The notes below the pieces were generated by a model that saw only the letters and a list, made by a program, of their open reading frames with translations, was not told where the DNA came from and did not search any database. The position numbers were made by a program, and so were the translations under genes. A stretch of DNA of 64,000 nucleotides from a virus (lineage: Duplodnaviria > Heunggongvirae > Uroviricota > Caudoviricetes): IMG/VR virus record IMGVR_UViG_2850808358_000005; one strand, 5' to 3'. Shown here one piece after another: positions 33,431 through 62,469 of this stretch. Every line of letters starts with the position of its first letter. Position 1 is the first letter of the stretch.

Positions 33431-33586
33431 TTACTTCCTGGATTCGTAGTCTACGAAGACAGCGACCTCCGTCTGGCCGGTTCGGATTCGTACCTCACAG
33501 AGGTCTTTCCTCGTTACCAGTGCCGTCACTATGACGGTTAAACAGATGACGATCAGGGCGATTAACATCGCCTTTTGCTGCTTCAT
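33431..33586 (-). CDS. hok: Hok/Gef-family type I toxin
   Basis: MKQQKAMLIALIVICLTVIVTALVTRKDLCEVRIRTGQTEVAVF... matches the Hok/Gef family; overlapping upstream frame (mok-like). Confidence 0.85.
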   Translation of the reverse strand: MKQQKAMLIALIVICLTVIVTALVTRKDLCEVRIRTGQTEVAVFVDYESRK

Positions 33587-33813
33587 AGCCTGCTTCTCCT
33601 TGCCTTTCGGCATGTAAGAGGCTAACCTACATGTGCAAAGCATGAAATTGGCCTCAGATTAATGTTAAGCGTCTTGCCGGACGCGTAATGTTAACTGGGG
33701 CTTTTCTCTATCTGCCTTTTGGTGTTCATGCCTGAAGCAGATAGCCTCAAGCACCCGCAGTCATTCTACTTACCTCGCCAATATGAAATCAATCAGAAAG
33801 GTGCCCCATAAAA

Positions 33814-40950: not shown

Positions 40951-41220
40951 GCTTTCTGATATCCGGGATATTGACAAAGCAACCTGCATTGTTGCAAGAT
41001 GATCGCACTAGAAACAGTTAAGCGGTCATCCGCACCCGATAGCCTTGCGGCTTTTTTATGCCTGAAATACGGCACATCCGTACAAAGATCGGGTGGAGAG
41101 GCGTAATACAATACCCGTAAGGGGAATATGCCCGGAGCTTCTTAACTGGCTCTAGTTGACACCCGATCACCAGCTACTAACTGGTAATCGCAGACTAAAA
41201 CAGTTAAGGAGGCCACTAAA

Positions 41221-45019: not shown

Positions 45020-46284
45020 TGAGGTGTACTGGCAATAGCGGACACTACCATTTGTTCTTTTTTTAAGCAGCCATCTGATGATATTTTTCCCTGAAGGCTG
45101 CCGGGGAGATATTCCCCAGACGAGAGTGACGACGCTGACGATTGTAGAAAATCTCAATGTATTCCCGTATTACTGAGATGGCTTCATCCCGGTTATTAAA
45201 ACGATAGTGGCTCAGGCTCTCATTTTTCAGCGTTCCCCAGAAGCTTTCCATCGGAGCGTTGTCGTAACAGTTACCTTTACGCGACATTGATGTTTTCAGA
45301 CCAAACTGCTCCTGTATGACCCGGTAATCGTATGCGCAGTACTGTGAACCTCGATCAGAGTGGTGGATTAGCCCGGCAGGTGGGCGCTGGCTCCTGAGCG
45401 CCATAAACAGGGCTTTACCTGTCAGCTCTTTTGTCATGCGCTCTCCCATGGCGTAGCCGACAATTTCGCACGTATAAACATCTTTGATGCCAGCGAGGTA
45501 CAACCATCCCTCCTGTGTGGCAACATACGTCAGGTCCGCCACCCAGACCTGATTTGGTGCTGTAGGAGCGAACGTCTGGTTCAGCAGATTTGGCGCAACT
45601 GGCAGATTGTGGTTCGGGTTCGTAGTCGCTCTGAACTTGCGTTTCTGCTTACAGCGTAGCCTTAGCTCCTTACGAAGACGTGCCAGTCGGTCACGACCAA
45701 CGATGATGCCATTCTCTGCCAGCTCCGTCTGGAGCCGCCGGGTTCCATATGTTTCGCGAGTGCGGATATGTGCCACCTTAATCTCCAGTTTTAGCCGCTC
45801 ATCACTTTGTTTTCTGTCTGAGGGTTCATGCTGTACCCAGTTGTAATAACCGCTCCTGGATACACCAAATACCTGACACATAGCTTCAATGGGAAATTGT
45901 TGTCGCCATTGTTCGATTAACGCGTATTTTTCAGCGACTCCTGTGCAAAATACGCTGTTGCTTTTTTTTAATATATCTCGCTCAAGGCGAGCTTCATTTA
46001 ACGCCTTACGCAGTTGCAGAATTTCAGATTCCAGTTCAGCCACCGTGCGGGAACCAGGAGTACCGAGCCCTTTTCTGGCGGCGGTAACCCATTGTCCTAA
46101 AGTGCCTTCAGGAAGGGATAATCGGGAAGCGCCTTCACTGATCGAAAGTTGATTTTCAAGAACCGTTCTGACAGCTTCGGCTTTGAACTCTTTAGAGTAA
46201 CGTTGGGTTTTTCTGCTCATTATTAGCTCCTTCTGATGCCATTCTATTTCAGGAAGGAGTGTCCGTTAAACTCAGGCTACCTCA
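45020..46284 (-). mobile_element. IS600 copy 3, 1265 bp, TSD GCT
   Basis: Ends as other copies; GCT at 45017..45019 and 46285..46287; one extra A in the slippery run. Confidence 0.9.
45063..46220 (-). CDS. IS600 fused OrfAB transposase (in-frame fusion)
   Basis: 385-aa continuous ORF; A8 (45962..45969) versus A7 in the other four copies. Confidence 0.8.
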   Translation of the reverse strand: MSRKTQRYSKEFKAEAVRTVLENQLSISEGASRLSLPEGTLGQWVTAARKGLGTPGSRTVAELESEILQLRKALNEARLERDILKKSNSVFCTGVAEKYALIEQWRQQFPIEAMCQVFGVSRSGYYNWVQHEPSDRKQSDERLKLEIKVAHIRTRETYGTRRLQTELAENGIIVGRDRLARLRKELRLRCKQKRKFRATTNPNHNLPVAPNLLNQTFAPTAPNQVWVADLTYVATQEGWLYLAGIKDVYTCEIVGYAMGERMTKELTGKALFMALRSQRPPAGLIHHSDRGSQYCAYDYRVIQEQFGLKTSMSRKGNCYDNAPMESFWGTLKNESLSHYRFNNRDEAISVIREYIEIFYNRQRRHSRLGNISPAAFREKYHQMAA

Positions 46285-47020
46285 GCTCAAACAGGAGTGG
46301 CGACGCTTTACCGATCGATTTGTTAACAGTCAGGCGCACATTATTATGTGCGGGCGTGCAGGATATGAGTATGACTTTTTCGAAGGTGATGATGGCAAAC
46401 GCCAGTTGGCAAAAACCGGTATAAAAATGAAAGCAGAAACAGAAACCGGTTATGAACCCTCCATCCTGATCCAGATGGAGAAGCAAATGAACATAGAAAC
46501 CGGTCAGGTGTGGCGCACCGCCAGAATACTAAAAGATCGCTCCACCCGTATTGATGGACAGGTATTTTCAAACCCAACATTTAAAAACTTTCTTCCTCAT
46601 ATCGAGTTTCTTAACCTGGGAGGTGAACACCTCGGCATCGATACCTCACGGGATAACAGTGAATTATTTGCCAACGACGGTACACCGACATGGCTAAAAG
46701 AAAAGCGTGCAAAAGAAATCGCACTTGATGAAATTATCGAGTTGCTCAACAAGCACCATGGGGGCACCAGTAACGACGCCAAACGCGCAAAAGCTGATTT
46801 GCTGGAAAAAACATTCACCTCCCGCTCATGGGAAAGAATCAAAGGTATGGACTGGCCGACAATCAAAGCTGGTCGTAATGCACTATGGATTGAACTGGAA
46901 GGCGTTGAATATGCATTCCCGGATCCACAAACACAAAACGAAACGCAACAAGCAGGATACGATGAGAATATTCCGGTGTAAAACCAAGTGCATTTTTGGA
47001 AAATATTAATGGAGGTGTTC

Positions 47021-47185
47021 ATGTATAAAATTACAGCCACTATTGAAAAGGAAGGTGGTTCTCCTGCCAGCTGGACAAGATACTCAAAGACAAAACTAAC
47101 GAAATCAGAATGCGAAAAAAATGCTCTCAGGGGAAAAAGAAGCAGGCGCTTCCAGAGAGCAGAAAGTAAAACTGATAAATTTTAA
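47021..47185 (+). CDS. Hypothetical small protein
   Basis: GGAGG RBS before MYKITATIEKEGG... Confidence 0.3.
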   Translation: MYKITATIEKEGGSPASWTRYSKTKLTKSECEKNALRGKRSRRFQRAESKTDKF

Positions 47186-47316
47186 TTGCGAGAAACTTCA
47201 GTCCTCGTGAATTTCATTATATCCAGATTAGAACTTCATAGCTGATTATTAAAAATCAACCACACCCGCCAGTATTCTGTATATTTACTGGCGGTCATAT
47301 CGTGAGAGGTATGGCA

Positions 47317-47598
47317 ATGAATCTTGTGACACTCAAAACGTGGGGAAAACTCAGATATCCGGATAACCCACCATCAATATCAACGCTGAGACGATGGGCA
47401 AGGAATGGAAACATTTATCCTGCACCTGAACTACACGGGAGGAGTTACAGGGTGGTTCCGGAGGCTTTCTATATCAACCCAAATAAGGTTGATACCGATA
47501 TAACACACCATCAGCCTAATGGGCGACAAGGGAGAGACAGTCCGTTAATGGAGAAGTTAAAACATGCAGCGGAAAAAATACGATCCCAATTTGCCTAG
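47317..47598 (+). CDS. xis: Excisionase
   Basis: MNLVTLKTWGKLRYPDNPPSISTLRRWARNGNIYPAPE... Xis-like, overlaps int start. Confidence 0.7.
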   Translation: MNLVTLKTWGKLRYPDNPPSISTLRRWARNGNIYPAPELHGRSYRVVPEAFYINPNKVDTDITHHQPNGRQGRDSPLMEKLKHAAEKIRSQFA

Positions 47599-48640
47599 AA
47601 ACTTAACATATCGAAGGAGAGACAAAGCATATTACTGGCGCAACCCTCTGACGAAAGAAGAATTTACACTAGGTAAAATTTCAAGAAGAGATGCAGTAAC
47701 GCAGGCAATTGAAGCAAATCATTATATATACAAAAACTACTCTCCCGCTGCCTTAATTGAAAAACTTAAAGGGTTCGACTCATTTACTATGGCAGACTGG
47801 ATTGAACGTTACAAAACGATTCTTATAAGGAGAAAAGTGTCCAGAAATACTTATAAAATTCGGGCAAATCAACTGGAGACAATAAAAGAAAAATTGGGAG
47901 AGATTTTACTGACAGAAATAACCACTCGCCATATTGCCGAGTTTCTTGATTTGTGGATTGAAGGAGGGAAAAACACAATGGCAGGATCAATGCGTTCTGT
48001 GTTGTCTGATATGTTTCGCGAGGCCATTGTTGAAGGACGTATATCTCAAAATCCAGTCACGCCAACAAGAGCACCGAAAATAGTAGTTACAAGAGAACGA
48101 CTGAAACTAAAGACATACAACTGCATCAGGGAGGCAGCAGATCAACTTCCGGCATGGTTCCCATTAGCTATGGATTTAGCCCTTGTAACAGGACAACGTC
48201 GCGAAGACATAACGAATATGCGGTTCAGTGATATTTATGATGATCGTCTCCACGTCAGGCAAATTAAGACAGGAATGATGATTGCTATCCCCCTGTCACT
48301 CAGCCTTCCTGTCGCTGGTCTACGGCTTGGTACAGTAGTTGAACGATGCCGCCTGGTAAGCCGGGGAGATTATCTAATCAGTGCCGGGATTAGAAAAAAC
48401 AGCCCTGACGGCAGCATTCACCCGGATGGCCTGACAAAAAAATTTGTCGCAGCCAGAAAATTCACAGGTATCCAGTTCAGTGAAAACCCACCAACTTTTC
48501 ACGAGATCAGAAGCCTGGCTGGACGATTGTACAAAGAAACATGTGGAGAAGAATTTGCTCAGCGTCTACTTGGCCACACATCGGAGAAGACAACAAAAAT
48601 GTATCTTGATGAGAGAGAAAAAACGTACTTACTGCTCTGA
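47564..48640 (+). CDS. int: Tyrosine integrase (lambda Int family)
   Basis: 358 aa; C-terminal catalytic region ...[11 protein letters not shown]...[15 protein letters not shown]. Confidence 0.9.
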
Positions 48641-48687
48641 TTTTAACGTAAATGGATTGTTAAATGTATTTTGGTTGTGATATAACC

Positions 48688-48788
48688 AAAAAGACCGGAA
48701 TACAGAAATTCGAGTAAATTTCGGGGAATTTCGGGGGAGACATTTGCAACTAATTGATTTCAAATGCAATTAAAAAAAGACCGAATAC
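48688..48788. repeat. Candidate att core repeats AAAAAGACCG(G)AATAC
   Basis: Motif at 48688..48703 and 48774..48788; degenerate copy at 793..807 at the start of the first ipaH repeat. Confidence 0.35.
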
Positions 48789-49242
48789 GATTCCTGTTTT
48801 CGTCAACAAACAATAAAACCCTTTAAAATTAATGCGTTGAATAAATTTACGTTCATCTTTTAATCCCTGGCACGTACCATTGCATATTAATACATTCAAC
48901 CAGTTACCATTTTTTTCGAGTTTTTTAGAGAAATTTTCGGGAATATTTCAGGTCAATCCATGCAGACGCAAGCAATTCCTGTATTGAATAATTCCGTAGC
49001 AATTATGTAAAATCATCTCCGGCTGATTTTCATTCAAACTCGCGCTATCGAACATCCATCAGCCAGCCGTGGCACGTTCTTGCATACGACGTGCTACGGT
49101 TTCCTTTACGATTTGGGGTTGCGACTTTACCTCTATTGATAATGCATTCCGGCAGAACGTTCAAATATGAAGTACGATGTTTAACTAACCGAAAAACAAG
49201 AACAATACGGTGCAAGCAAGCTATTCACAGTTAACTGAAACA

Positions 49243-49259
49243 GTATCGTTTTTTTACAG
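49243..49259 (+). promoter_or_regulatory. MxiE box, second copy
   Basis: GTATCGTTTTTTTACAG identical to the first copy. Confidence 0.8.
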
Positions 49260-49378
49260 CCAATTTTGTTTGTCCTTTTATAATAAAAAAGTTATGAAGT
49301 TCATTTCATGGAATGAACTTCATAAAAACTCCTACTTATTTCTTTTAACAAAGCCATTTGTCCATCGGCTTTAACTGA

Positions 49379-51094
49379 ATGTCCATCATGTTACCGATAA
49401 ATAATAACTTTTCATTGTCCCAAAATTCTTTTTATAACACTATTTCCGGTACATATGCTGATTACTTTTCAGCATGGGATAAATGGGAAAAACAAGCGCT
49501 CCCCGGTGAAAATCGGAATGAAGCGGTCTCCCTACTTAAAGAATGTCTCATCAATCAGTTCAGTGAGCTTCAACTGAATCGTTTAAATCTGTCCTCGCTA
49601 CCTGACAACTTACCACCTCAAATCACTGTTCTGGAAATTACTCAGAATGCCCTAATATCATTACCAGAATTGCCAGCATCGCTGGAATACCTTGACGCCT
49701 GTGACAATCACCTGTCAACACTTCCTGAATTACCCGCATCTCTGAAACATCTTGATGTAGATAACAACCAACTAACCATGCTTCCTGAATTGCCTGCATT
49801 GCTGGAATATATTAATGCAGATAACAATCAGCTAACCATGCTTCCTGAATTACCTACATCGCTGGAAGTGCTCTCAGTAAGAAATAACCAGCTGACATTT
49901 CTCCCTGAGTTACCTGAATCACTGGAAGCGCTCGATGTAAGTACTAATCTTCTGGAAAGCCTACCAGCCGTACCTGTAAGAAATCATCACTCAGAGGAAA
50001 CCGAGATATTTTTCCGGTGCCGCGAGAATCGCATCACACACATTCCGGAAAATATACTTAGCCTTGATCCGACCTGCACTATCATCCTCGAAGACAATCC
50101 TCTGTCCTCACGGATCAGGGAGTCTCTGTCGCAACAAACCGCCCAACCGGACTACCACGGCCCACGGATTTACTTCTCCATGAGTGACGGACAACAGAAT
50201 ACACTCCATCGCCCCCTGGCTGATGCCGTGACAGCATGGTTCCCGGAAAACAAACAATCTGATGTATCACAGATATGGCATGCTTTTGAACATGAAGAGC
50301 ACGCCAACACCTTTTCCGCGTTCCTTGACCGCCTTTCCGATACCGTCTCTGCACGCAATACCTCCGGATTCCGTGAACAGGTCGCTGCATGGCTGGAAAA
50401 ACTCAGTGCCTCTGCGGAGCTTCGACAGCAGTCTTTCGCTGTTGCTGCTGATGCCACTGAGAGCTGTGAGGACCGTGTCGCGCTCACATGGAACAATCTC
50501 CGGAAAACCCTCCTGGTCCATCAGGCATCTGAAGGCCTTTTCGATAATGATACCGGCGCTCTGCTCTCCCTGGGCAGGGAAATGTTCCGCCTCGAAATTC
50601 TGGAGGACATTGCCCGGGATAAAGTCAGAACTCTCCATTTTGTGGATGAGATAGAAGTCTACCTGGCCTTCCAGACCATGCTCGCAGAGAAACTTCAGCT
50701 CTCCACTGCCGTGAAGGAAATGCGTTTCTATGGCGTGTCGGGAGTGACAGCAAATGACCTCCGCACTGCCGAAGCCATGGTCAGAAGCCGTGAAGAGAAT
50801 GAATTTACGGACTGGTTCTCCCTCTGGGGACCATGGCATGCTGTACTGAAGCGTACGGAAGCTGACCGCTGGGCGCTGGCAGAAGAGCAGAAATATGAGA
50901 TGCTGGAGAATGAGTACCCTCAGAGGGTGGCTGACCGGCTGAAAGCATCAGGTCTGAGCGGTGATGCGGATGCGGAGAGGGAAGCCGGTGCACAGGTGAT
51001 GCGTGAGACTGAACAGCAGATTTACCGTCAGCTGACTGACGAGGTACTGGCCCTGCGATTGCCTGAAAACGGCTCACAACTGCACCATTCATAA
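49379..51094 (+). CDS. ipaH: IpaH-family type III effector, second identical copy
   Basis: 571-aa product identical to 1400..3115. Confidence 0.95.
   Translation: MSIMLPINNNFSLSQNSFYNTISGTYADYFSAWDKWEKQALPGENRNEAVSLLKECLINQFSELQLNRLNLSSLPDNLPPQITVLEITQNALISLPELPASLEYLDACDNHLSTLPELPASLKHLDVDNNQLTMLPELPALLEYINADNNQLTMLPELPTSLEVLSVRNNQLTFLPELPESLEALDVSTNLLESLPAVPVRNHHSEETEIFFRCRENRITHIPENILSLDPTCTIILEDNPLSSRIRESLSQQTAQPDYHGPRIYFSMSDGQQNTLHRPLADAVTAWFPENKQSDVSQIWHAFEHEEHANTFSAFLDRLSDTVSARNTSGFREQVAAWLEKLSASAELRQQSFAVAADATESCEDRVALTWNNLRKTLLVHQASEGLFDNDTGALLSLGREMFRLEILEDIARDKVRTLHFVDEIEVYLAFQTMLAEKLQLSTAVKEMRFYGVSGVTANDLRTAEAMVRSREENEFTDWFSLWGPWHAVLKRTEADRWALAEEQKYEMLENEYPQRVADRLKASGLSGDADAEREAGAQVMRETEQQIYRQLTDEVLALRLPENGSQLHHS
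49600..49969 (+). repeat. LRR-encoding tandem DNA repeats in the second ipaH
   Basis: Same as first copy. Confidence 0.7.
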
Positions 51095-51602
51095 TCACAT
51101 CGCATAAACCACAGACCGGACTGACTCCGGAAAAACAGAGGCCCGCCCCCGGGCCTCCCCGGATTCATCCGTTTCCCTGTTCAGCCTGACAGCACGCCCC
51201 GGCGGCCGGATGACAGACTCCGCTTCGGTAAGCAAAGCGGTCTTCTGTGATTCCGCCAGTTGCGGCTTATTCATTACTCAACGTCAAACGCCCGAATTGA
51301 AGCCAAATCATCCAGACTGCTCAGCTCCTCTTTCATCTCCCGCTGACGGCGATAAATCTCATCGTTGCGATCGACCTGCGCCTGCACCATTGCTGCCGCC
51401 AGTTCTTCCAGTTCCGGCATCGACAGTTTCACCTGCTGATTATCGGCATCGCTCCACGCCATATGCGTTTGTGCTGTGACAGATTTTGCCAGCATGACTA
51501 CCGGGGACAGGCGGCCCAGTGAGTCGGGGCCAGCATTCTGAGGTAGCCTGAGTTTAACGGACACTCCTTCCTGAAATAGAATGGCATCAGAAGGAGCTAA
51601 TA

Positions 51603-51905
51603 ATGAGCAGAAAAACCCAACGTTACTCTAAAGAGTTCAAAGCCGAAGCTGTCAGAACGGTTCCTGAAAATCAACTTTCGATCAGTGAAGGCGCTTCCCG
51701 ATTATCCCTTCCTGAAGGCACTTTAGGACAATGGGTTACCGCCGCCAGAAAAGGGCTCGGTACTCCTGGTTCCCGCACGGTGGCTGAACTGGAATCTGAA
51801 ATTCTGCAACTGCGTAAGGCGTTAAATGAAGCTCGCCTTGAGCGAGATATATTAAAAAAAGCAACAGCGTATTTTGCACAGGAGTCGCTGAAAAATACGC
51901 GTTAA
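51603..51905 (+). CDS. IS600 OrfA
   Basis: 100 aa (one substitution RTVPENQ). Confidence 0.9.
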   Translation: MSRKTQRYSKEFKAEAVRTVPENQLSISEGASRLSLPEGTLGQWVTAARKGLGTPGSRTVAELESEILQLRKALNEARLERDILKKATAYFAQESLKNTR

Positions 51906-51940
51906 TCGAACAATGGCGACAACAATTTCCCATTGAAGCG

Positions 51941-52759
51941 ATGTGTCAGGTATTTGGTGTATCCAGGAGCGGTTATTACAACCGGGTACAGCATGAACCC
52001 TCAGACAGAAAACAAAGTGATGAGCGGCTAAAACTGGAGATTAAGGTGGCACATATCCGCACTCGCGAAACATATGGAACCCGGCGGCTCCAGACGGAGC
52101 TGGCAGAGAATGGCATCATCGTTGGTCGTGACCGACTGGCACGTCTTCGTAAGGAGCTAAGGCTACGCTGTAAGCAGAAACGCAAGTTCAGAGCGACTAC
52201 GAACCCGAACCACAATCTGCCAGTTGCGCCAAATCTGCTGAACCAGACGTTCGCTCCTACAGCACCAAATCAGGTCTGGGTGGCGGACCTGACGTATGTT
52301 GCCACACAGGAGGGATGGTTGTACCTCGCTGGCATCAAAGATGTTTATACGTGCGAAATTGTCGGCTACGCCATGGGAGAGCGCATGACAAAAGAGCTGA
52401 CAGGTAAAGCCCTGTTTATGGCGCTCAGGAGCCAGCGCCCACCTGCCGGGCTAATCCACCACTCTGATCGAGGTTCACAGTACTGCGCATACGATTACCG
52501 GGTCATACAGGAGCAGTTTGGTCTGAAAACATCAATGTCGCGTAAAGGTAACTGTTACGACAACGCTCCGATGGAAAGCTTCTGGGGAACGCTGAAAAAT
52601 GAGAGCCTGAGCCACTATCGTTTTAATAACCGGGATGAAGCCATCTCAGTAATACGGGAATACATTGAGATTTTCTACAATCGTCAGCGTCGTCACTCTC
52701 GTCTGGGGAATATCTCCCCGGCAGCCTTCAGGGAAAAATATCATCAGATGGCTGCTTAA
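51941..52759 (+). CDS. IS600 OrfB transposase
   Basis: 272 aa. Confidence 0.9.
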   Translation: MCQVFGVSRSGYYNRVQHEPSDRKQSDERLKLEIKVAHIRTRETYGTRRLQTELAENGIIVGRDRLARLRKELRLRCKQKRKFRATTNPNHNLPVAPNLLNQTFAPTAPNQVWVADLTYVATQEGWLYLAGIKDVYTCEIVGYAMGERMTKELTGKALFMALRSQRPPAGLIHHSDRGSQYCAYDYRVIQEQFGLKTSMSRKGNCYDNAPMESFWGTLKNESLSHYRFNNRDEAISVIREYIEIFYNRQRRHSRLGNISPAAFREKYHQMAA

Positions 52760-53114
52760 AAAAAGAACAAATGGTAGTGTCCGCTATTGCCAGTACACCT
52801 CATTCCAGACACGACCGTTCCATTCAAACGTGAACGGCTTCGCCTCCTGTTCTGTGCGCCATGCTTCAATTTCCTGACGTCTGGCCTCTCTGGCCGCTTC
52901 CAGCATTTCTGGTGTCACAGTGAATGGGGCTATCTCACCCCATTTGCCACTTTGCAGTTCCTGCCAGATTTGCTGACCCGTCGGTGCGACATCATCAGCG
53001 GTGGCTGTGTAGGGGACTGCCTGGTCTCTGTCGTCAAAAAAAACGTCACAGTCTACTGCGCCACTTTCGGTATAACGGGGATTAATGATTTTTTTAATTT
53101 CCACGGTGCATTCC

Positions 53115-54113
53115 TCACGATGTGCGAATAAAAAGCCCGGGCATTGCGCCAGAGACATGTGCATCCGGCACCCCGGACAGGGCGCAATATGACCCCGGTA
53201 ATGAATGCTCTGAACATCCCGTAATGAAAAATTGTGGGGATGCTATATACGTTCCGGTGGGAGTACTGGGCACTGAAATCCCCACCGGTCCCAGTCGTGA
53301 GCCTCTGTATGACAGCCCCCTGACAAGTCTGATGACTTTATCACCGTCAGCTTCTCCCTGGTACGCAGCAATAATCAGCCCGCCAATGTCAGGGTCTCCC
53401 CATCTGTTGCGGACAGAGCTCGCCACGATTCTGTAAATAATATCTTCTGTGGTTATATTTATTTTCACCCAGTCAGTCTGGATATGGGCCAGTAGCAGTA
53501 GCGGGTGTGATAAATGGGGCCGTTAATGCCGTAAAAAGTAAGGGATTTGGCTCTGTACCGCGGTTCTATTGTCTCAGGGTGTGCATCAGTCCACCGGATG
53601 CTGAGCACCCCTTCAAACCGTGTGTCGGGTATGATGCCCTGGCGGCCAGCAACGGAATACTCACCTGGCAGCGCATTCCTTACCCAGGCCAGGAAATCAC
53701 TCTTAGTGTCAAAACGGATAACATCTTCAGGCAGAAAAGCACACCCAAAGCCGAATGCGCCGGGTATCGCCAGACGGCCTTTTGTCCGGTCGTAAATGTC
53801 GCTCTGTGCTTCCATCGTGGCCGCACTTTTCAGCCCCAGATTATCCCGGGACTTCTGTTGTGCCTTTTCGCCTGCTGCTGCGATTTCAGACAGATGGTTA
53901 GCCGTTTTCAGAGTGCCGGTCAGCGCAGCATCAATGTCATTTTTGGCCTGTTCTGCTGCGCGGGCATAACCTGCGGCTGCCTGTGCACGCTGACCGGATA
54001 AGACGGCGTTTTTCCCCGTGCTTTTCACGTCTTCCGCTGTGGCCTTTCTGTTCTCAGCTGTGACGGTTGCATCCTGTCGGGCTTTCTCCGCAAAACGTTG
54101 TGCATCATCACGG
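53115..54113 (-). pseudogene. Side tail-fibre gene fragment, 5'-truncated by IS600 copy 5, internal stop
   Basis: ORFs 53465..54145 and 53115..53468 share ...AAAGYARAAEQAKNDIDAALTGTLKT... with 5495..6400. Confidence 0.6.
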
Positions 54114-54156
54114 TGAGGTGTACTGGCAATAGCGGACACTACCATTTGTTCTTTTT

Positions 54157-54975
54157 TTAAGCAGCCATCTGATGATATTTTTCCCTGAAGGCTGCCGGGG
54201 AGATATTCCCCAGACGAGAGTGACGACGCTGACGATTGTAGAAAATCTCAATGTATTCCCGTATTACTGAGATGGCTTCATCCCGGTTATTAAAACGATA
54301 GTGGCTCAGGCTCTCATTTTTCAGCGTTCCCCAGAAGCTTTCCATCGGAGCGTTGTCGTAACAGTTACCTTTACGCGACATTGATGTTTTCAGACCAAAC
54401 TGCTCCTGTATGACCCGGTAATCGTATGCGCAGTACTGTGAACCTCGATCAGAGTGGTGGATTAGCCCGGCAGGTGGGCGCTGGCTCCTGAGCGCCATAA
54501 ACAGGGCTTTACCTGTCAGCTCTTTTGTCATGCGCTCTCCCATGGCGTAGCCGACAATTTCGCACGTATAAACATCTTTGATGCCAGCGAGGTACAACCA
54601 TCCCTCCTGTGTGGCAACATACGTCAGGTCCGCCACCCAGACCTGATTTGGTGCTGTAGGAGCGAACGTCTGGTTCAGCAGATTTGGCGCAACTGGCAGA
54701 TTGTGGTTCGGGTTCGTAGTCGCTCTGAACTTGCGTTTCTGCTTACAGCGTAGCCTTAGCTCCTTACGAAGACGTGCCAGTCGGTCACGACCAACGATGA
54801 TGCCATTCTCTGCCAGCTCCGTCTGGAGCCGCCGGGTTCCATATGTTTCGCGAGTGCGGATATGTGCCACCTTAATCTCCTGTTTTAGCCGCTCATCACT
54901 TTGTTTTCTGTCTGAGGGTTCATGCTGTACCCGGTTGTAATAACCGCTCCTGGATACACCAAATACCTGACACAT
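54157..54975 (-). CDS. IS600 OrfB transposase
   Basis: 272 aa (ERLKQEIKV variant). Confidence 0.9.
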   Translation of the reverse strand: MCQVFGVSRSGYYNRVQHEPSDRKQSDERLKQEIKVAHIRTRETYGTRRLQTELAENGIIVGRDRLARLRKELRLRCKQKRKFRATTNPNHNLPVAPNLLNQTFAPTAPNQVWVADLTYVATQEGWLYLAGIKDVYTCEIVGYAMGERMTKELTGKALFMALRSQRPPAGLIHHSDRGSQYCAYDYRVIQEQFGLKTSMSRKGNCYDNAPMESFWGTLKNESLSHYRFNNRDEAISVIREYIEIFYNRQRRHSRLGNISPAAFREKYHQMAA

Positions 54976-55010
54976 CGCTTCAATGGGAAATTGTTGTCGC
55001 CATTGTTCGA

Positions 55011-55313
55011 TTAACGCGTATTTTTCAGCGACTCCTGTGCAAAATACGCTGTTGCTTTTTTTAATATATCTCGCTCAAGGCGAGCTTCATTTAACGCCTT
55101 ACGCAGTTGCAGAATTTCAGATTCCAGTTCAGCCACCGTGCGGGAACCAGGAGTACCGAGCCCTTTTCTGGCGGCGGTAACCCATTGTCCTAAAGTGCCT
55201 TCAGGAAGGGATAATCGGGAAGCGCCTTCACTGATCGAAAGTTGATTTTCAAGAACCGTTCTGACAGCTTCGGCTTTGAACTCTTTAGAGTAACGTTGGG
55301 TTTTTCTGCTCAT
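55011..55313 (-). CDS. IS600 OrfA
   Basis: 100 aa. Confidence 0.9.
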   Translation of the reverse strand: MSRKTQRYSKEFKAEAVRTVLENQLSISEGASRLSLPEGTLGQWVTAARKGLGTPGSRTVAELESEILQLRKALNEARLERDILKKATAYFAQESLKNTR

Positions 55314-55377
55314 TATTAGCTCCTTCTGATGCCATTCTATTTCAGGAAGGAGTGTCCGTTAAACTCAGGCTACCTCA

Positions 55378-56045
55378 GTGTCATTTTGCGCGGCTGCCAG
55401 TGTATTGAGCAAATTACCAACACCAGAAAAATAAGGCGAATAAGTGCTTTCTGCCGCCTTTAACTCTCCTGGAGTTGCCTGCAATTCATCAGCATTTTTC
55501 TGTTTCTCTACAACATTACGAGCCATCATGCCAAAGCCAAACGGCCCGGCAACGCCCATAACCGCAAGTTTTGTCCCCCACGATACGGTGGTTTTAAACA
55601 GGTTGTTTAATCTCGAAGTGGTCGTCCGTAGCGTAGAATTGATCTGCTTGTAAGTTTTCAGCGTCTGTTTGGCGTTTTTCCCCAGCCCGCTGAGGTACTT
55701 ATCAAACATCGTTTCGCCGCGACCTTTATAGTTGCTCACCAGCGAATCAGGTGTTTTCCCGCTGCCAACAAAGCGCCATTTTTCATCCCTTAAACGTCCA
55801 TCAGTGGAAGCAGCCAGAACTGGCGCGGGTGAAGATGGTTTCCTGGGAGCCTGATTGGCTTCTCCGCCTGTGGTTGTCTGCCAAGAGCCACCTCCCGGAC
55901 CGGTATTTGAAGGTATTTTAAGCGGCGTACCGGCAGGGCCAATCATCAGTCCGTTGCGATACTTTTCAAATATCGCCTCAAGCCGCCTGAGGTGTTCTTC
56001 ATTAACATCCAGCGTCAGAACTGGCATCTGGTTACCAGCCATCAC
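55378..56045 (-). pseudogene. Tape measure gene, N-terminal fragment (prophage 2) truncated by IS600
   Basis: 226-aa ORF whose 3' end runs into the IS terminus; position after the chaperone genes. Confidence 0.55.
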
Positions 56046-56735
56046 AATACTCCTGCGGGATTTTTGAATTTGAGCAGCTCACGAAACTGAGCTGCTGTTT
56101 TTACATTTAGGCCGGAATCTGCACAGATGTCTCTGAATCCGGCTCCGGCTGAGTAGTCGAGGATGTCGCTGATGACGTGTTCGCCGTCGCGCCAGAACTG
56201 GCGGCTGATTTCAATGTCGGCAATGAAGCGATCCATTCCGTAAGATTCAATAACGAGCATTGAGTGCTCCATACTCCATTGACCACATCCATAGTCCCCT
56301 TCGCCTGCTCCGGTGAATTTATCGACGAGACGCATGTAAAAAAATGAGCTCACCCGCCACTTCATCCAAATCAATGATTTCACGCTCCAGCGCCATATCG
56401 AGAGGGATTGTGTCGTAGCCTTTACCCTCCACTGGGTAAACAAGGTTTGCCAGGCGAATGACCTCATTAACAAGTGTATTACGGACCCCTTTATCACCTT
56501 CCCAGATATTAGAATCACGCGAGATCCGCTCCAGCATCAAAAAAGCGATACGCGGACCCGCAACGACGCCAAGACCTTCTGAAAAAATGGCAGAAAAAGT
56601 TTTACTCAGAATGAAGAAATGCTCTTTAAACACCTCTTTGCTGATCGGCGTGGCATGGATCCAGCCATTACCCTTTTCTGTCCGGACAGGAATAATCAGG
56701 TTTAAATTTCGCGCGATTTTCATACCAGATCCCAC
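56042..56735 (-). CDS. Tail assembly chaperone pair (G-like 56319..56735; -1 frame extension 56042..56518)
   Basis: Two overlapping ORFs in frames 0 and -1 between the tube and tape-measure genes. Confidence 0.55.
56337..56344 (-). other. Candidate programmed -1 frameshift slippery site TTTTTTTA
   Basis: Located at the end of the G-like ORF where the -1 ORF continues (...SSFFYMRLVDKF...). Confidence 0.45.
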
Positions 56736-57163
56736 ATTTCAGAGTTGATGTAATACGTACCAGTAATGGTGATGGCCACACCCGGCTCGCCCCCGGCGAA
56801 GGTCATATCCTGCACGTTGGTGATCGCCGTGTTATAGATATCGAAGTCACCGAACACCGTGCTGTCGCTATACACTTTTGCGTCGCCGATCGTGGCATTC
56901 TTTTTCCATTGCGCCTTGAATTGTTTTCCCAGCGCCTGGCTACGCAGCAGATGAACACGCGCCTGTAAAATCATGTATGGCTGCGGCGACTGCACGGCTC
57001 CCGTCATAGCGGGTAAAAACTCCGTGATATTGCCCTGAAAGGACAATTCGACGCCTTCTTTTGCCAGAAATGAGGCGGACACATTCAGTTCAGAATGGGA
57101 GGTGAATTTAACGCTGGCGCGAACCCGGTTAAGGGTGCCAACGGGGATCATTGGATTAGGCAC
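56720..57163 (-). CDS. Tail tube protein (prophage 2)
   Basis: 147 aa between sheath and chaperone genes. Confidence 0.5.
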   Translation of the reverse strand: MPNPMIPVGTLNRVRASVKFTSHSELNVSASFLAKEGVELSFQGNITEFLPAMTGAVQSPQPYMILQARVHLLRSQALGKQFKAQWKKNATIGDAKVYSDSTVFGDFDIYNTAITNVQDMTFAGGEPGVAITITGTYYINSEMWDLV

Positions 57164-57174
57164 GGTTCAGTCCC

Positions 57175-58239
57175 TCACGAAAGCTGCATTGTCACATTGA
57201 TGTTAAAAATGATTTCGACAAATCCGCGCATCGGCGTATAGGAGGCCGAAAGGCCTGCATAACGCCCGATACCGTAATCATTGGGATTAGTGTTGATATA
57301 CTGGCGGAAAGGCACTGCATCGACGACAGGCTGACCGTTGACCAGGCCGTAAGATACGCCCGTATTGAACACCGCCTGTGCGACCTGCTGTAGACGGTCG
57401 ATCCCGTCCTGGTTGTAGTAAAGCGGGTTAATTGAGTTATTGCTGCCGTTGATCACCGTGTTGGCGAGCTGCATATCGACATTAATCTGCACCCAGTCCA
57501 CGGAATACCAGTACGTCATATCGTTACCGTCACTGGTAACGCCTTTCACCAGAATCGTGTTGGAAATTCCCCCTCAGCCCCCGTGTCGACGTAGTTAATA
57601 TTCTGCTTCGTCATCGTGACCAGAATTGAATTTTTGCCCGTGTGGGCGTTTACCGCCTGTAGATAGCGAAATGCCATCGGCGGCACCTTGTTGATTTCTG
57701 AAGGTGATGCGGAAACATAGTTCCACATTACGGCTGCTGCCGCGTTTGTCGCCGGGTACGTATCATCCGCCGTTGCAATAACCGACTTAATACCGGCATA
57801 AGGCGAAACGTAATTCGTGTCGTCCGGCGTTTTCGTCAGCACGAAGAAATACTGCATCGCTTCGTTGGCGGTGTGGAGTTTTGCCAGACTGATAAACTCT
57901 GCGTCACCATCCCACGGCTGCGGCACCAGATACGCATAAAAACGCAGGAGCGGATCTTCCATATAAGCTTTCAGTGCAGCGATTTCCTTACTGACTCCAC
58001 CTTTCTGTACTCCCAGCTCCAGCAGGTAAATCCCAACTGAATTTCCCTGGGCAAAAAAACGTGTTTACTGCCGTCACCAGATTTTCACTGCCAACAATGG
58101 AAAACTGCCCCAGTGTCACTGGCGAACCGGAAAGCTGAGAATCAGCAATCGTCCAGGTCAGTGTTTTTTCATCCGTGACGGTAGCAGTATATTCGCCATT
58201 CCACGCGTCGGGCGAACACCCGGAAACAACAATTTTCAC
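57175..58239 (-). pseudogene. Tail sheath gene, fragmented by frameshifts/stop
   Basis: Three consecutive ORF fragments (57988..58239, 57546..57962, 57175..57549) in different frames. Confidence 0.5.
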
Positions 58240-58511
58240 CTCAGAACTGTTTTCGCGTCGGATGTTGCTCCTTCCGGAAGCGTCATCGTAACGGTGACGT
58301 TTGCCGCAGATTTTCCTGCAGCAGCCGCCGACAACGCAGCAATCGGATTTCTTACCAGATCGTTAATATCCTGATTACGGGTGAGTAATACAGGCTTTCC
58401 CGGCTCATGAGTCGTGGAGCCAAACGAGAGAACAGCAGACATCTGCTGCAAATTCGAGGGAATGGCCCCGATGGTCTGGGACACATTCACCGTGACGATA
58501 TTAAACCCCAT
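58236..58511 (-). CDS. Phage structural protein, hypothetical
   Basis: 91-aa ORF. Confidence 0.3.
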   Translation of the reverse strand: MGFNIVTVNVSQTIGAIPSNLQQMSAVLSFGSTTHEPGKPVLLTRNQDINDLVRNPIAALSAAAAGKSAANVTVTMTLPEGATSDAKTVLR

Positions 58512-59455
58512 TATTTAACCTCATATTTACAAATGACTTTTTCAATCAACTGCCGGGATATTTCCCGGGCGGTGCTCTGGTAGTAATTCACGTCAAAATC
58601 GACAATCTTTTTCTTCGCCAGAGCGTTGATTTCAACCTGTCCCGACTTTGCGTCCTGAACCACCGGAATATTGGTTACACCAAACTTTTCCTCCTCCAGC
58701 GCCCTGTTCACCACCGAGTCGACAAGATCCAGCGCCATTTTATTGCTGAATCCATAAAGCGTCAGGCGAACCGAATCCTGGACGAGCTGGAATCGCTCAC
58801 CACCGAAAACAACGGGAGCCACCTGCAATGGAATACTGTTGCGAACATCCACCGCGATATACGGAGGGCGAAGGTTCTGCGGTACCAGGTAAGACGGATA
58901 CACGGTCGCGGCATCTTTCATTTGCAGCCAGATCGGGATGCTGTTGGATATGATCTGCTCGTCGCTGATATCCTCCTCGCAGTCGATAATCTGGGAACGC
59001 ATGGTTGGCAAAATCGCCATGCCGCGATAATGAAAAATACCCGACTGCTGATAGCGGCTCTCCATTCGAGAAAAAGCGAACTGGACGCCGCCGTACTCAC
59101 CGAGATAGATCGCATCGGGATTTTCCACATTAAAATCATCAACCTGCTGAACAGGCGTGAAAATAATGTTGTTCACATCCTTCGAGACAGACTCGTCCTG
59201 AATCGCAATAATCTGACGATGCAGGCTGCCTTTGATTTTCAGACGAGTTGGTGACTCAATATTCAGACGACACAGTTCATCGCAACTGATGATTTCCGCA
59301 TTAACCCAATAGACAAAGCCATCCAGCGGCAGAACCTGCCGGACATAGAGCCTGAACGTGATTTCCTGGTCTGACGAGATGGTTTCAACTGCGGATTTAA
59401 GAACGGACGAGAGCTGCGAACTGTGCTGTTCGGCTAATTCTTCAAGACTCGGCAT
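58511..59455 (-). CDS. Phage structural protein (neck/tail region), hypothetical
   Basis: 314-aa ORF. Confidence 0.35.
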   Translation of the reverse strand: MPSLEELAEQHSSQLSSVLKSAVETISSDQEITFRLYVRQVLPLDGFVYWVNAEIISCDELCRLNIESPTRLKIKGSLHRQIIAIQDESVSKDVNNIIFTPVQQVDDFNVENPDAIYLGEYGGVQFAFSRMESRYQQSGIFHYRGMAILPTMRSQIIDCEEDISDEQIISNSIPIWLQMKDAATVYPSYLVPQNLRPPYIAVDVRNSIPLQVAPVVFGGERFQLVQDSVRLTLYGFSNKMALDLVDSVVNRALEEEKFGVTNIPVVQDAKSGQVEINALAKKKIVDFDVNYYQSTAREISRQLIEKVICKYEVK

Positions 59456-59897
59456 TGTTATCTATCCACGCTATAAAGCTGCCCTTAAACAGGCCGCCAT
59501 CTATGAATGACGGGCGCCGCTCCCCGGTATATTTGTCCTTAAGCCTTGAGTTAACACCCTGTAACGCAGCCTGGGTTGGGACCTGATTTCCGTTGATCGT
59601 CATTCCGGCCATTTCTTCGGTTTCAAGAAATATATGGAAAATCTTCCCGGTCCCTTCCAGAAAATGCTCGCCAGGTAGCGGAGCCTTATACTTGAAGTGA
59701 TTGACCAACTGGTACGCCAGTTCAGTACCTGCCTCCTGGATAATCTCGTCCTTATGCATTTCCCAGAAGTGCGTAAAAATTTCGTATCGCTCCTCGAGGT
59801 CACAGGCCACGTCAAACGTGGTTTTTCCCAGTTCGTCGCCGTAGTCATACGGCTGGTCGATAACCCCAAAACAAAGTTTCATGGCGTGTAACCCCAT
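59442..59897 (-). CDS. Phage structural protein, hypothetical
   Basis: 151-aa ORF. Confidence 0.3.
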   Translation of the reverse strand: MGLHAMKLCFGVIDQPYDYGDELGKTTFDVACDLEERYEIFTHFWEMHKDEIIQEAGTELAYQLVNHFKYKAPLPGEHFLEGTGKIFHIFLETEEMAGMTINGNQVPTQAALQGVNSRLKDKYTGERRPSFIDGGLFKGSFIAWIDNNAES

Positions 59898-60319
59898 ACC
59901 GTGCCCATCTGCATCAGCACCGCAACAACCTGTCGTCCATACGGATCCTGTAACATCTGCAAATCCAGCAAAGACAGATTACTCAGCGCGTCGCTGATGG
60001 TGATCGAACCAGATGTCCCCTGGTCTGCTGCCGCGCTGACAAGCCCGGTAGCCAGTTTCCCAAGGTTGAGTTTTTTTCTCAGGTCGGCAAACCGCGAGCC
60101 GGGAGCGAAATTCAGGAGAAATGAGGCGGCAGCGTTATAAACCGTTCGCACATAGATGATGGGTAAACGCTCCAGCCCCTGATCGTGAGGGATTAGCTCC
60201 ATAGCAGACTGAAAGCAACATTCCAGCGTCGGATCATCGTCAGCAATAGCGTGAACCGATACTTTCATGTCGTCACGAACAAAGCGAATAAATCCCTCCA
60301 GTGACGGACGCAAGGTCAT
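59879..60319 (-). CDS. Phage head-tail protein, hypothetical
   Basis: 146-aa ORF. Confidence 0.3.
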   Translation of the reverse strand: MTLRPSLEGFIRFVRDDMKVSVHAIADDDPTLECCFQSAMELIPHDQGLERLPIIYVRTVYNAAASFLLNFAPGSRFADLRKKLNLGKLATGLVSAAADQGTSGSITISDALSNLSLLDLQMLQDPYGRQVVAVLMQMGTVWGYTP

Positions 60320-60603
60320 TATTTTTTAACCTTAATATTTCGCTTTGTGCTGGGCGGATTTTCCTGTTCAGTGTTAATCGCTTCCCCGGTGATTTCCATT
60401 TCAATACCACCCGGTTGAGGTTTTTCGCCACTTTGAATCACTGCCTGATCCACTGCGTTATTCAGCGATACGGCGCTGGCTGCAAGAATTTCTTCTGACA
60501 GGGATTCCAGATTTTCCGTTTTCTGCTCCGCGCAATCCTCAATGCGACCGACGCTCACAGGTTTATCGATGGAATAGCAGATACCGGAAAAATTCTTGTC
60601 CAC
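60319..60603 (-). CDS. Phage head-tail protein, hypothetical
   Basis: 94-aa ORF. Confidence 0.3.
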   Translation of the reverse strand: MDKNFSGICYSIDKPVSVGRIEDCAEQKTENLESLSEEILAASAVSLNNAVDQAVIQSGEKPQPGGIEMEITGEAINTEQENPPSTKRNIKVKK

Positions 60604-60630
60604 CTTGTCACAACGCTGGAATCCGTAAGG

Positions 60631-60816
60631 CTAATGCTGTCGGATGATGTGGTCGATAATATCGGACTGATTTTCGATCATATGCTGACGTCCGGACGGA
60701 ATTGTCACACCGAACGACTGCGTTTTTTCGGGGAGTTTGTAGTTGAACGTGTGCGGCTGACGTGAGCAGTTAGCGATGTAGAGCTTCATAAATTTTTCCC
60801 ACAAAAAAGGGAGCAT
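60631..60816 (-). CDS. Small phage protein, hypothetical
   Basis: 61-aa ORF. Confidence 0.25.
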   Translation of the reverse strand: MLPFLWEKFMKLYIANCSRQPHTFNYKLPEKTQSFGVTIPSGRQHMIENQSDIIDHIIRQH

Positions 60817-60845
60817 TTAGCTCCCCGCGTTATCAGATTGAACGT

Positions 60846-61874
60846 TTATGCGTATTTGGCAGACAACAGGGTGATCCCCTCAGGGCGGAAGTTCCAGCCC
60901 GGCGTCGCGCGCATGGTATACAACGTGGTCAGGCCGCCATCCGGCATAGGGGACGGGATTTCCGTCGGCGCTGCCATATCACAGAACATCACGTTGACGG
61001 CCTGCTGGTTAGGTACCAGCGGGGAGAAAATATTGGTGTTAATGGTGTGACGCGCTTCCGGAACCTCAATCGTCGGGTTCGTAACGATGATCAGGTCATT
61101 ACCACCAGCGCCTTTACCGATCAGCGTGTCGTCCTGGCAGAACATGATGTCGTCGCCTGTCGCCTTATCGGCGACGTCTTTAACCATCGTTCCCACCGTT
61201 CCGGTACCACCACCAGGACGCTGGTAACTGGTCAGCTCAACAATTCCTGTCCACTCCAGCGCCTTCATGAATCGCTGTGGGCTCAGAATAACAGTCGTTA
61301 ATGGCTGCCCCAGCAGCAACATGCGGGTTTTCTGGTCAGCAATCAGGCCAAGCATAAATTTAGCCATCTCGCCGGAATCCCAGGTGGTGTACGAATCGTT
61401 ACCTTTGCTGTCGTTGCCCAGATTCAGCGTCACTGCGTTCGGTGAGTTGGTGATCCCCTCGTTATTAGCTGCATTCACGCCATACAGCAGCATATTACGC
61501 AACATTTGAGCGTGTCCCTGACGGTTAGCCAGGCGCAGGCCTTCAATCAGAGAATAGCCCCAGCGATCTGCTGCATCAGTATCGAGATAGCTGTATTGCG
61601 AGCGGGAAGAAATTCGGTAAGTCATCATTCCGTCATAGCCGCCAGAGATACTGGAAGACGGTAACTGACCCGGCAGAGACTGGCTGACCTGCGCCTGCGA
61701 GGTCATGCGCAGATATTTCTGATAGACCATCAAATCACTGGAACTGATTTTTACCGCTGGAGCACCACCGGCCAGGACTTCAAACGCCCCGGAAGCCATG
61801 CTCTGTTGCACGATCATTTCCGGCAGCACCATTGACGGCGACACAATAGTAGTCGCAGGAGTAAATGCGCTCAT
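60846..61874 (-). CDS. Major capsid protein (prophage 2)
   Basis: 342 aa; largest head ORF, downstream of the decoration/scaffold-like gene. Confidence 0.55.
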   Translation of the reverse strand: MSAFTPATTIVSPSMVLPEMIVQQSMASGAFEVLAGGAPAVKISSSDLMVYQKYLRMTSQAQVSQSLPGQLPSSSISGGYDGMMTYRISSRSQYSYLDTDAADRWGYSLIEGLRLANRQGHAQMLRNMLLYGVNAANNEGITNSPNAVTLNLGNDSKGNDSYTTWDSGEMAKFMLGLIADQKTRMLLLGQPLTTVILSPQRFMKALEWTGIVELTSYQRPGGGTGTVGTMVKDVADKATGDDIMFCQDDTLIGKGAGGNDLIIVTNPTIEVPEARHTINTNIFSPLVPNQQAVNVMFCDMAAPTEIPSPMPDGGLTTLYTMRATPGWNFRPEGITLLSAKYA

Positions 61875-62469
61875 TAATTAATATCCCCTTAAATTAAAAA
61901 CAGGCCGCACGGTTTGCCGATTTCCCAGACAACGTTACCACCATCCTCTTTTTTCACCGTCAGGTTTCCGTCAACTGAAACCATCAGCAGCTTAATATCC
62001 ACTTTCGGATTAGCGCCGGGTGATCCCGAATAAACATCAACCATGTTTTTCGTCAGATCCCACACAAAACCACTGGCAGCAACGGTGTTATTTCCATCAG
62101 CCAGCGCAACAACTTCTGCACTGACAGGGAGAGGAATGCGGGCACCTGAGCCAACGCGGTAATAGTGAACAAAGCCACCCGCGAGATATAACGGCACCGG
62201 ATTATCCGGCGTGGTAATGCCATGAAATGCCTGATTAAAGACAGTAAAGGCGTTACAGGCGTCCTTCGTGGCTTGTTTAATTACCGCGCCGTTAACGCTG
62301 TCTTTCGCGGGGGCAATGCACTCCATAACTCCAACGCCACCCCATACCGGTTCAGTGATTTTGCTGTCCAGTCGACCGGAGCAAAGTTGCAGACGAATTG
62401 CCGGATCATCCTGCGCATCCCCCTGCATCAGCCCACGGGATTCGACGTTAAAAAGGCCACCAAATGCTC

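Follow-up and report, generated by a model that had tools for sequence, protein, structure and literature searches.

A repeated motif at tandem ipaH prophages probably belongs to the attachment-site core of lambda-like phages at the 3' end of sdsR (ryeB)

The 64,000-nucleotide stretch analyzed here (the window) is the IMG/VR virus record IMGVR_UViG_2850808358_000005, which carries two ipaH prophages next to the host gene pphA (prpA). A short motif occurs in it at 48688 and 48774, downstream of the integrase gene (int), and again, in degenerate form, at 793 beside pphA. The analysis indicates, with a probability of about 0.88, that a 27-bp sequence is the attachment site (att) core of a family of lambda-like phages targeting the 3' end of the small RNA (sRNA) gene sdsR, also known as ryeB, and that the motif forms the int-proximal half of this core. 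Two of the three motif copies mark true junctions, while the copy at 48688 is phage arm sequence.

All three copies reported in the original prediction were found in the window sequence. For the degenerate copy, given as 793..807, the presence was correct, but the end coordinate fell 2 nt short, as the quoted string has 17 nt and spans 793-809. An ungapped search with the 15-mer, allowing up to three mismatches, returned 4 matches against 1.9 expected, which is not significant; this search overlooks the 48688 copy because of a 1-nt indel. When the 27-bp core was aligned locally, with gaps, to the int-side arm (130 bp), the score was 26, a value reached by 2 of 5000 dinucleotide shuffles, and both the 48688 copy and the core copy are kept in distant relatives. 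The motif repeat is real and not a chance match.

The core was delimited by aligning the empty site, the two junctions of the window (J1 and J2), the pphA-side and int-side junctions of E. coli lysogens, and a phage genome record. It reads TAAAAA[G/A]AGACCGAA[C/T]ACGATTCCTGT and is located at 792-818 (J1) and 48771-48797 (J2). A four-way comparison of the bacterial attachment site (attB), J1, J2 and the int-side junction revealed that these 27 bp are common to the empty site and both prophage ends. J1 joins the host flank to a phage arm, and J2 joins two phage arms in the configuration of a phage attachment site (attP); the layout of J2 is identical in the phage record PP818812, and the same arrangement is found in E. 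coli 6817 (NZ_CP075003.1). At the int-side junction of single lysogens, the order is int-side arm, core and sdsR body, followed by yebY.

The motif copies at 793 and 48774 both fall within this core, which is also present in unoccupied E. coli sites, so the proposed membership of the motif in an att core held, although the core extends over 27 bp rather than the 15 nt of the motif. The expected positions of the two copies were confirmed as well: the degenerate copy stands at the start of the first repeat unit, which begins at 792 beside pphA, and the 48774 copy sits 3 nt inside the start (48771) of the second ipaH repeat. The left flank of the window (1-791) was matched in 5426 of 5426 complete E. 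coli genomes, and the prophage-free ones match window positions 1..823. Host homology, running to 823, thus reaches past the beginning of the phage repeat at 792, which gives an overlap of 792-818(823). The check suggested in the original prediction, against the unoccupied site, came out positive, as that E. coli site contains the motif.

Within the core, two polymorphic positions distinguish host from phage. J1 carries the host-type bases (G and C) and J2 the phage-type bases (A and T), which in the four-way comparison also stand at the int-side junction, so that each variant stays with its own arm. The second position is T, the phage type, at J2 and at all of the approximately 70 int-side junctions examined. 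On the opposite side of the core, the first base difference between host and phage is at 819. Taken together, these differences place strand exchange within 808-818, i.e., ACGATTCCTGT. We infer that the crossover lies in this segment, most likely just to the right of the motif, and that it includes a 7-nt hairpin loop. In attB, the hairpin GACCGAACAC-GATTCCT-GTATTCGGTC has an 11-bp stem and a 7-nt loop and forms the perfect inverted repeat GACCGAAYAC-GATTCCT-GTATTCGGTC. Its geometry is that expected of two inverted core-type half-sites flanking a 7-bp overlap, which would probably be GATTCCT.

The location of the site next to prpA had been recognized in the original prediction, but the sdsR/ryeB terminator had not. 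On the empty site of E. coli BL21 (L001), Rfam places SdsR_RyeB on the minus strand at 2292-2391 (114 bits) and SraC_RyeA on the plus strand at 2288-2432 (175 bits), with the end of the former and the modelled start of the latter at the core sequence; the core itself corresponds to L001 2291-2317. Read as its reverse complement, the motif gives the 3' half of the SdsR terminator stem together with the U-run. When the site is unoccupied, the core spans this 3' stem half (GUGUUCGGUC plus the U-run, minus strand) and the 7-nt loop, and it also lies inside the antisense ryeA gene. At the gathering threshold, Rfam detected no SdsR or RyeA match in the window, because only the terminator segment is present there; below the gathering score, J2 matched the RyeA 1-40 and SdsR 60-100 segments only.

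In single lysogens, joining of the int-side arm to the sdsR body restores a perfect terminator. The attB terminator folds with -15.8 kcal/mol, and the int-side junction of an E. coli lysogen (L003), where the half-site from the phage is perfectly complementary to the one from the host, folds identically, also with -15.8 kcal/mol. The minus strands of the window's J1 and J2 fold no better than shuffled sequences, and these hybrid terminators do not fold. Two IMG/VR loci (L067 and L069) encode an integrase 100% identical to that of the window and carry its exact arm; in both, the arm joins the sdsR body as predicted. The right end of the array would read int arm, TAAAAAAAGACCGAATACGATTCCTGT and ATTCGGTCCAGGG... 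(sdsR body), followed by yebY.

According to PMC6610125, the ryeA promoter is located on the pphA side of the site, the sdsR terminator is leaky, and most transcription of pphA comes from the sdsR promoter by read-through. On these published data, the insertion would part RyeA from its own promoter and pphA from its main one, depriving pphA of sdsR read-through. The host segment 741-791, containing the predicted ryeA promoter, is the same as in the BL21 empty site except for one base. Base comparison and translation showed that pphA carries an extra T at 345 relative to BL21, a +1 frameshift that splits it into two open reading frames (ORFs). For the regulatory locus, the insertion suggests a three-way rewiring, in which SdsR keeps its terminator, RyeA loses its promoter, and pphA loses its main transcription source and has decayed here.

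The integrase of prophage 1 is intact. Its catalytic domain was recognized as PF00589 (59.7 bits, cut-off 27.1) and its arm-binding domain as PF09003 Arm-DNA-bind_1 (28.0 bits, cut-off 22; residues 4-61). The protein is 39-41% identical to the lambda and HK022 integrases, and R212, K235, H313, R316, H338 and Y347, i.e., all six catalytic residues, are invariant in the alignment with lambda Int. The excisionase gene (xis) lies directly upstream and overlaps the int start. Together, these features identify a predicted lambda-type (heterobivalent) system.

From the int stop codon to the core, the order is the upstream motif copy, three arm repeats, a site resembling that of the integration host factor (IHF), and the core. 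Repeats distinct from the core sites occur in both att arms, where they are predicted to serve as arm-type sites. Alignment of the arms of relatives revealed that the three repeats co-vary within each phage, as CGAG, CGGA, CGTG, CGAT or CGGAC, each three times; such co-variation would be expected of arm-type sites co-evolving with each integrase. The IHF-like site is an exact match to WATCAANNNNTTR and the sole one within 48640-48960, which is weak evidence on its own; its ATTGATT is retained in many relatives.

We propose that the integrase would act like lambda Int, with its N-terminal domain on the distal repeat as well as on the tandem array of three AATTTCGGG-type repeats, IHF bending the arm, and the catalytic domain cutting at the edges of GATTCCT. 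Temperate phages of this lambda-like family would thereby integrate via the 27-bp core into the sdsR 3' end, between pphA and yebY.

To assess the distribution of the family, the integrase-relative alignment was run against one genome per species. The scan yielded 49 loci with 34-93% integrase identity, in Shigella, Escherichia, Salmonella, Citrobacter, Pseudescherichia, Buttiauxella, Serratia, Yersinia, Rahnella, Rouxiella, Brenneria, Enterobacter, Leclercia, Kluyvera, Pantoea and other genera. The sdsR body directly follows the same core, with the same arm layout, in 36 of the 45 loci examined. The exceptions are of two kinds. Three loci carry the same core followed by non-sdsR sequence with arm-type repeats (L094, L095 and L116) and are probably phage-phage (tandem) junctions. 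Others, L097 (Serratia rubidaea NCTC12971) and L111 and L112 (Pantoea), with 47-60% integrase identity, are at different chromosomal sites and keep the three arm repeats; the ORF downstream of L097 is presumably katG, judging from its N-terminal sequence. In these relatives, att specificity has switched naturally within the family, which makes them useful for locating its determinants. Among the complete E. coli genomes, the int-side arm was detected in 228, with two copies in 20 of these carriers, and was absent from the 5198 prophage-free ones. In single lysogens, the arm match ends at window position 48802, followed by sdsR and yebY.

The phage record mentioned above, PP818812.1 ('Actinobacillus phage vB_Apl-pPE4'), encodes an integrase 97.5% identical to that of the window, and its attP core is the enterobacterial sdsR terminator. 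It is assigned to Actinobacillus pleuropneumoniae; this host assignment looks doubtful, and the phage may be one of E. coli or Shigella.

Rather than a junction, the motif copy at 48688 is a conserved part of the int-proximal arm, at its outer end. It lies directly 5' of the first arm repeat in single lysogens, in the phage record, in the Salmonella relative and in nearly all relatives down to approximately 60% integrase identity; in Serratia, Yersinia and Rahnella relatives, it starts at the int stop codon. Variable columns were counted among 44 distinct E. coli-level variants. The upstream copy was variable in 3 of 16 columns, the core in 4 of 27, the arm repeats in 8 of 34, the spacer in 21 of 33, and the segment from the int stop to the motif in 20 of 49. 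Across Enterobacterales, the upstream copy is conserved to the same degree as the core.

The best, though tentative, guess for the upstream copy is an accessory 'pseudo-core' that would be bound by the core-binding domain of the integrase and would change together with the real core. In Serratia fonticola (L098), GACCGAGTA is present in both the core and the upstream copy, and in two phages that use another att site, the position of the upstream copy again holds a core-like sequence (L097, p=0.011; L112, p=0.022). No core similarity was found at that position in L111, the clade at approximately 50% integrase identity was likewise negative for co-variation, and in E. coli core variants with GACCGAGTAC, the upstream copy has no matching change. 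If the pseudo-core reading is true, this would be a previously undescribed site and a hallmark of a large sdsR-targeting integrase family across Enterobacterales, which could help nucleate or regulate intasome assembly. It is the sole possibly new point of the present analysis.

The main alternative to such an accessory site, which we regard as rather doubtful, is that the upstream copy is a non-functional relic of an old core duplication, persisting by common ancestry or gene conversion. This is consistent with the clade at approximately 50% integrase identity, in which the upstream copy is reduced to AGACAGGATAT while the same core is still used, and with natural variants in which the two copies are recombined (L011) or made identical (L013). 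A relic would not be expected, however, to match the core and the arm repeats in conservation, as the variable-column counts of the upstream copy and the spacer illustrate, or to keep a fixed position beside the arm repeats across genera. The core-like sequences of L097 and L112, as well as the upstream copy that follows the core variant in Serratia fonticola, also argue against it.

In the variant L011 (IMGVR_UViG_2728369554_000022), exactly the 86 bp between the two copies are deleted at the int-side junction (...GATATAACCAAAAAAGACCGAATACGATTCCTGTATTCGG...), presumably by recombination or slippage between the direct copies. The deletion takes out the arm repeats and the IHF-like site, so this prophage should be locked in place.

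It is less likely that the upstream copy acts in RNA or transcription, either as a back-up terminator for sdsR read-through antisense into int or as the start of a transcript replacing RyeA, driven from the conserved TGnTATAAC just 5' of it, at 48676-48684. In favor of such a role, the sdsR terminator is leaky (PMC6610125), and lysogeny of the Salmonella phage W104 is reported, in the papers citing the original study, to alter the 5' portion of RyeA as well as the amounts of the two RNAs. The segment separating the int stop from the upstream motif contains TTGTTA (48659-48664) and an extended -10-like TGATATAAC (48676-48684), with 18 nt between TTGTTA and TATAAC. At 65-75% integrase identity, TGTGGTATAA is strongly conserved in Escherichia, Salmonella and Citrobacter relatives, a clade in which TGTG(G/A)TATAA and a TTGTTA-like hexamer are kept. 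In lysogens, TTGTTA-N18-TATAAC could act as a phage promoter from which transcription passes through att and enters the RyeA body. It was not called, however, by the consensus promoter scan, as its -10 element lacks the final T, and in the Serratia, Yersinia and Rahnella relatives, the motif abuts the int stop, leaving no room for a promoter, and is still conserved; the promoter was retained as a minor rival only. Folding of both strands at the upstream copy showed no hairpin with a U-run, and the terminator scan found none. A long inverted repeat, TGTATTTTGGTT / GACCGGAATACA (z = -1.7), was rejected, as it is not kept in relatives.

With regard to the prophages themselves, self-BLAST revealed a direct repeat, 792-3558 and 48771-51538, with 99.9% identity. 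It continues, broken by copies of a 1264-bp insertion sequence, to 6005 and 53981 (97%) and then ends. The original prediction of tandem prophages beside pphA was borne out: two different ipaH prophages are present, with J1 and J2 as their junctions. By this comparison, they are different phages of one integration family, integrated successively at the same site, and J2 is what would be expected when a second phage integrates into the junction of a resident prophage. An origin of both from a single prophage by unequal homologous recombination, with the motif as the edge of a duplication rather than a recombination core, would fit the 97-99.9% identity of their first ~5 kb; it is very improbable, as beyond 6005/53981 the units have only insertion sequences in common, the repeat begins exactly where the core found in empty sites has its left edge, and J2 has exactly the attP configuration of a phage record.

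The weakest explanation is that of the original prediction, in which all three copies are att cores (attL / hybrid att / attL'), so that the one at 48688 would be a scar left by an additional integration event or by a third prophage since deleted: the copy does resemble the core far beyond chance and lies just 86 bp from the true junction, but it is scarcely credible as a scar, since the intervening 86 bp are phage-specific, hold the arm repeats and IHF-like site of a functional arm, match neither the host flank nor the distal arm of the other phage, have no match in the 5198 prophage-free E. coli genomes, and recur together with the copy in single lysogens, the phage genome record, approximately 70 IMG/VR loci and relatives of other genera (at 60-75% integrase identity, down to ~60%).

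Several points weigh against the identification of the 27-bp core as the attachment site of this phage family. Integration and excision at the core are read from the sequence alone, as are the arm-repeat and IHF assignments, and the crossover interval depends on only two polymorphic positions. The 64-kb window does not reach the far junction of the array (int arm, core, sdsR body), and rebuilding of the terminator is seen in relatives only. Prophage 1, with its three insertion sequences, may be immobile. Finally, the decay of the upstream copy in a clade that uses the same core indicates that this element is not essential for recombination in general.

Table 1. Features of the window discussed in the text; positions refer to the 64,000-nucleotide stretch.
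Feature	Position	Strand	Basis or remark
pphA (prpA), host flank	1-658	-	frameshifted pseudogene; match to all 5426 complete E. coli genomes
Predicted host promoter of ryeA (-10 region) with the initial ~40 nt of RyeA	741-791	+	position inferred from promoter-mutation primers of PMC6610125
J1, host-phage junction (pphA flank / core / ipaH-side arm)	792-818		host-type bases G798, C807
Prophage 1	792-48770		self-BLAST, ORF list, phage tRNAs
Degenerate motif copy at J1	793-809		AAAAAGAGACCGAACAC
Arm-type repeat ATTTTCGGG, distal (ipaH-side) arm of prophage 1	954-962	+	motif scan
CssrB sRNA, between att and ipaH	1089-1271	-	Rfam RF02799, 151.6 bits (gathering score 76)
ipaH, prophage 1 cargo, 571 amino acids, NEL E3 ligase	1400-3115	+	near-identical to second copy
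1264-bp repeat, five copies, 99.7-99.9% identity	4150-5413, 8606-9869, 45020-46285, 51538-52802, 54114-55378		ORFs of 100 and 272 amino acids in each
Prophage 1: four-tRNA cluster (Gly-TCC, Thr-TGT, Arg-TCT, Met-CAT), sok antitoxin RNA, sRNA-Xcc1 match	31040-31350, 33581-33756, 41087-41176	-, -, +	
RalA antitoxin sRNA, just upstream of xis/int	47027-47206	-	Rfam, 198.5 bits
Excisionase (xis)	47302-47598	+	Pfam Exc 8e-14; annotated excisionase in E. coli lysogens
Predicted lambda-type tyrosine integrase, prophage 1, 358 amino acids, intact	47564-48640	+	Pfam Arm-DNA-bind_1, Phage_int_M, Phage_integrase
Motif copy, int-proximal arm	48688-48703	+	AAAAAGACCGGAATAC
Three tandem arm-type repeats, 10-11 bp period	48706-48735	+	AAATTCGAG 48706-14, AATTTCGGG 48717-25, AATTTCGGG 48727-35 (motif scan)
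IHF consensus match AATCAATTAGTTG, between arm repeats and core	48747-48759	-	predicted
J2, phage-phage junction (int-side arm of prophage 1 / core / ipaH-side arm of prophage 2)	48771-48797		phage-type bases A48777, T48786
Motif copy at J2	48774-48788		AAAAAGACCGAATAC
Prophage 2	48798-64000		continues past the window end; like prophage 1 over the first ~5 kb only (insertion sequences ignored)
Arm-type repeat ATTTTCGGG, distal arm of prophage 2, ~140 bp into the arm	48933-48941	+	motif scan
CssrB sRNA, second copy	49068-49250	-	Rfam
ipaH, second copy, prophage 2 cargo, 571 amino acids	49379-51094	+	Pfam NEL, LRR_TTSS, LRR_4

Both prophages carry ipaH as cargo (Table 1). The two IpaH proteins match PDB 3cvr_A, which we take to be IpaH3, over the full length (1269 bits), and IpaH1.4 and IpaH2.5 fit less well. 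In each prophage, CssrB is situated between att and ipaH, so that this 'chromosome-encoded Shigella sRNA' is phage cargo, present in duplicate. The 1264-bp repeat is an IS3-family-like insertion sequence, presumably IS600, of which three copies interrupt prophage 1 and two interrupt prophage 2; with three copies, prophage 1 is probably defective. In E. coli relatives, annotated ralR toxin, recT and recE genes are found at the position of RalA, which points to a type I toxin-antitoxin pair at the prophage end. In E. coli 6817 (L128), the position of the ipaH cargo beyond att is occupied by the type III effector gene nleC (3571-4557).

The attachment-site reading accounts for the presence of two ipaH effector prophages side by side next to pphA in a Shigella-type genome. 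Its exact boundaries are useful for annotation and for the design of attP/attB polymerase chain reaction (PCR) assays. At the cargo position next to att, phages of this one family bring in ipaH (Shigella), nleC (E. coli) and possibly ail (Yersinia); given this shared position, the site represents a common entry point for secretion-system effectors.

The site is of a known kind, as integration at the ryeB 3' end has been known since 2008, and the current understanding is unchanged. According to the papers that cite the original study, the last 23 bp of ryeB are the att of Salmonella phage W104, the locus is an insertion hot spot, and integration of W104 changes the levels of RyeA and RyeB (Balbontin 2008, cited in PMC7380047 and PMC3333887). 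As described there, W104 of Salmonella Typhimurium DT104 shares with the window phages both the locus and the target, the last ~23 bp of ryeB inside ryeA, and likewise splits ryeA and gives ryeB a new 3' end. The core and arm layout of the window recur in a Salmonella relative whose integrase is 72-75% identical. Differences from W104 include the host, here a Shigella-type genome, the ipaH and CssrB cargo, and the tandem of two different prophages; the shared core is 27 bp here and 23 bp there, the latter as given by the citing papers.

The Yersinia enterocolitica ail prophage vB_Yen_24-YE00064 has a 27-bp att beside a yebY-family gene (PMC12653942). Compared by description, it carries ail where the window phages carry ipaH, and PMC12653942 draws no link to sdsR. 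The Yersinia relatives of the present collection (L093, L094 and L122; 63% integrase identity) agree with the window in both the core and the upstream copy.

Phages and islands that integrate at the 3' ends of transfer RNA (tRNA), transfer-messenger RNA (tmRNA) or sRNA genes, and provide a replacement 3' end, include P4 at leuX, P22 at thrW and Sf6 at argW. As in these systems, a stable RNA gene holds the core in its 3' stem-loop, and the phage arm restores the 3' end, so that the SdsR RNA is kept. In contrast to them, the target is an Hfq-type sRNA with an overlapping antisense gene: SdsR is restored, RyeA is cut from its promoter, and the downstream pphA loses read-through transcription.

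The likeness to lambda extends from the integrase, with its N-terminal arm-binding domain and catalytic residues (39% identity), to the gene order, with xis overlapping the int start and int ending next to att. The int-proximal arm contains three tandem repeats phased at ~10 bp and an IHF consensus, like H'-P'1-P'2-P'3 (lambda C'-H'-P'1-P'2-P'3-int), and further repeats lie ~140 bp out in the other arm. In contrast, the window phages target an sRNA terminator hairpin, whereas lambda uses the gal-bio intergenic site, and the core half-sites of their attB form a perfect 10-bp inverted repeat. A search of the lambda P' arm for a direct core copy found none, whereas the window phage has a direct copy of a core half-site beyond its arm repeats.

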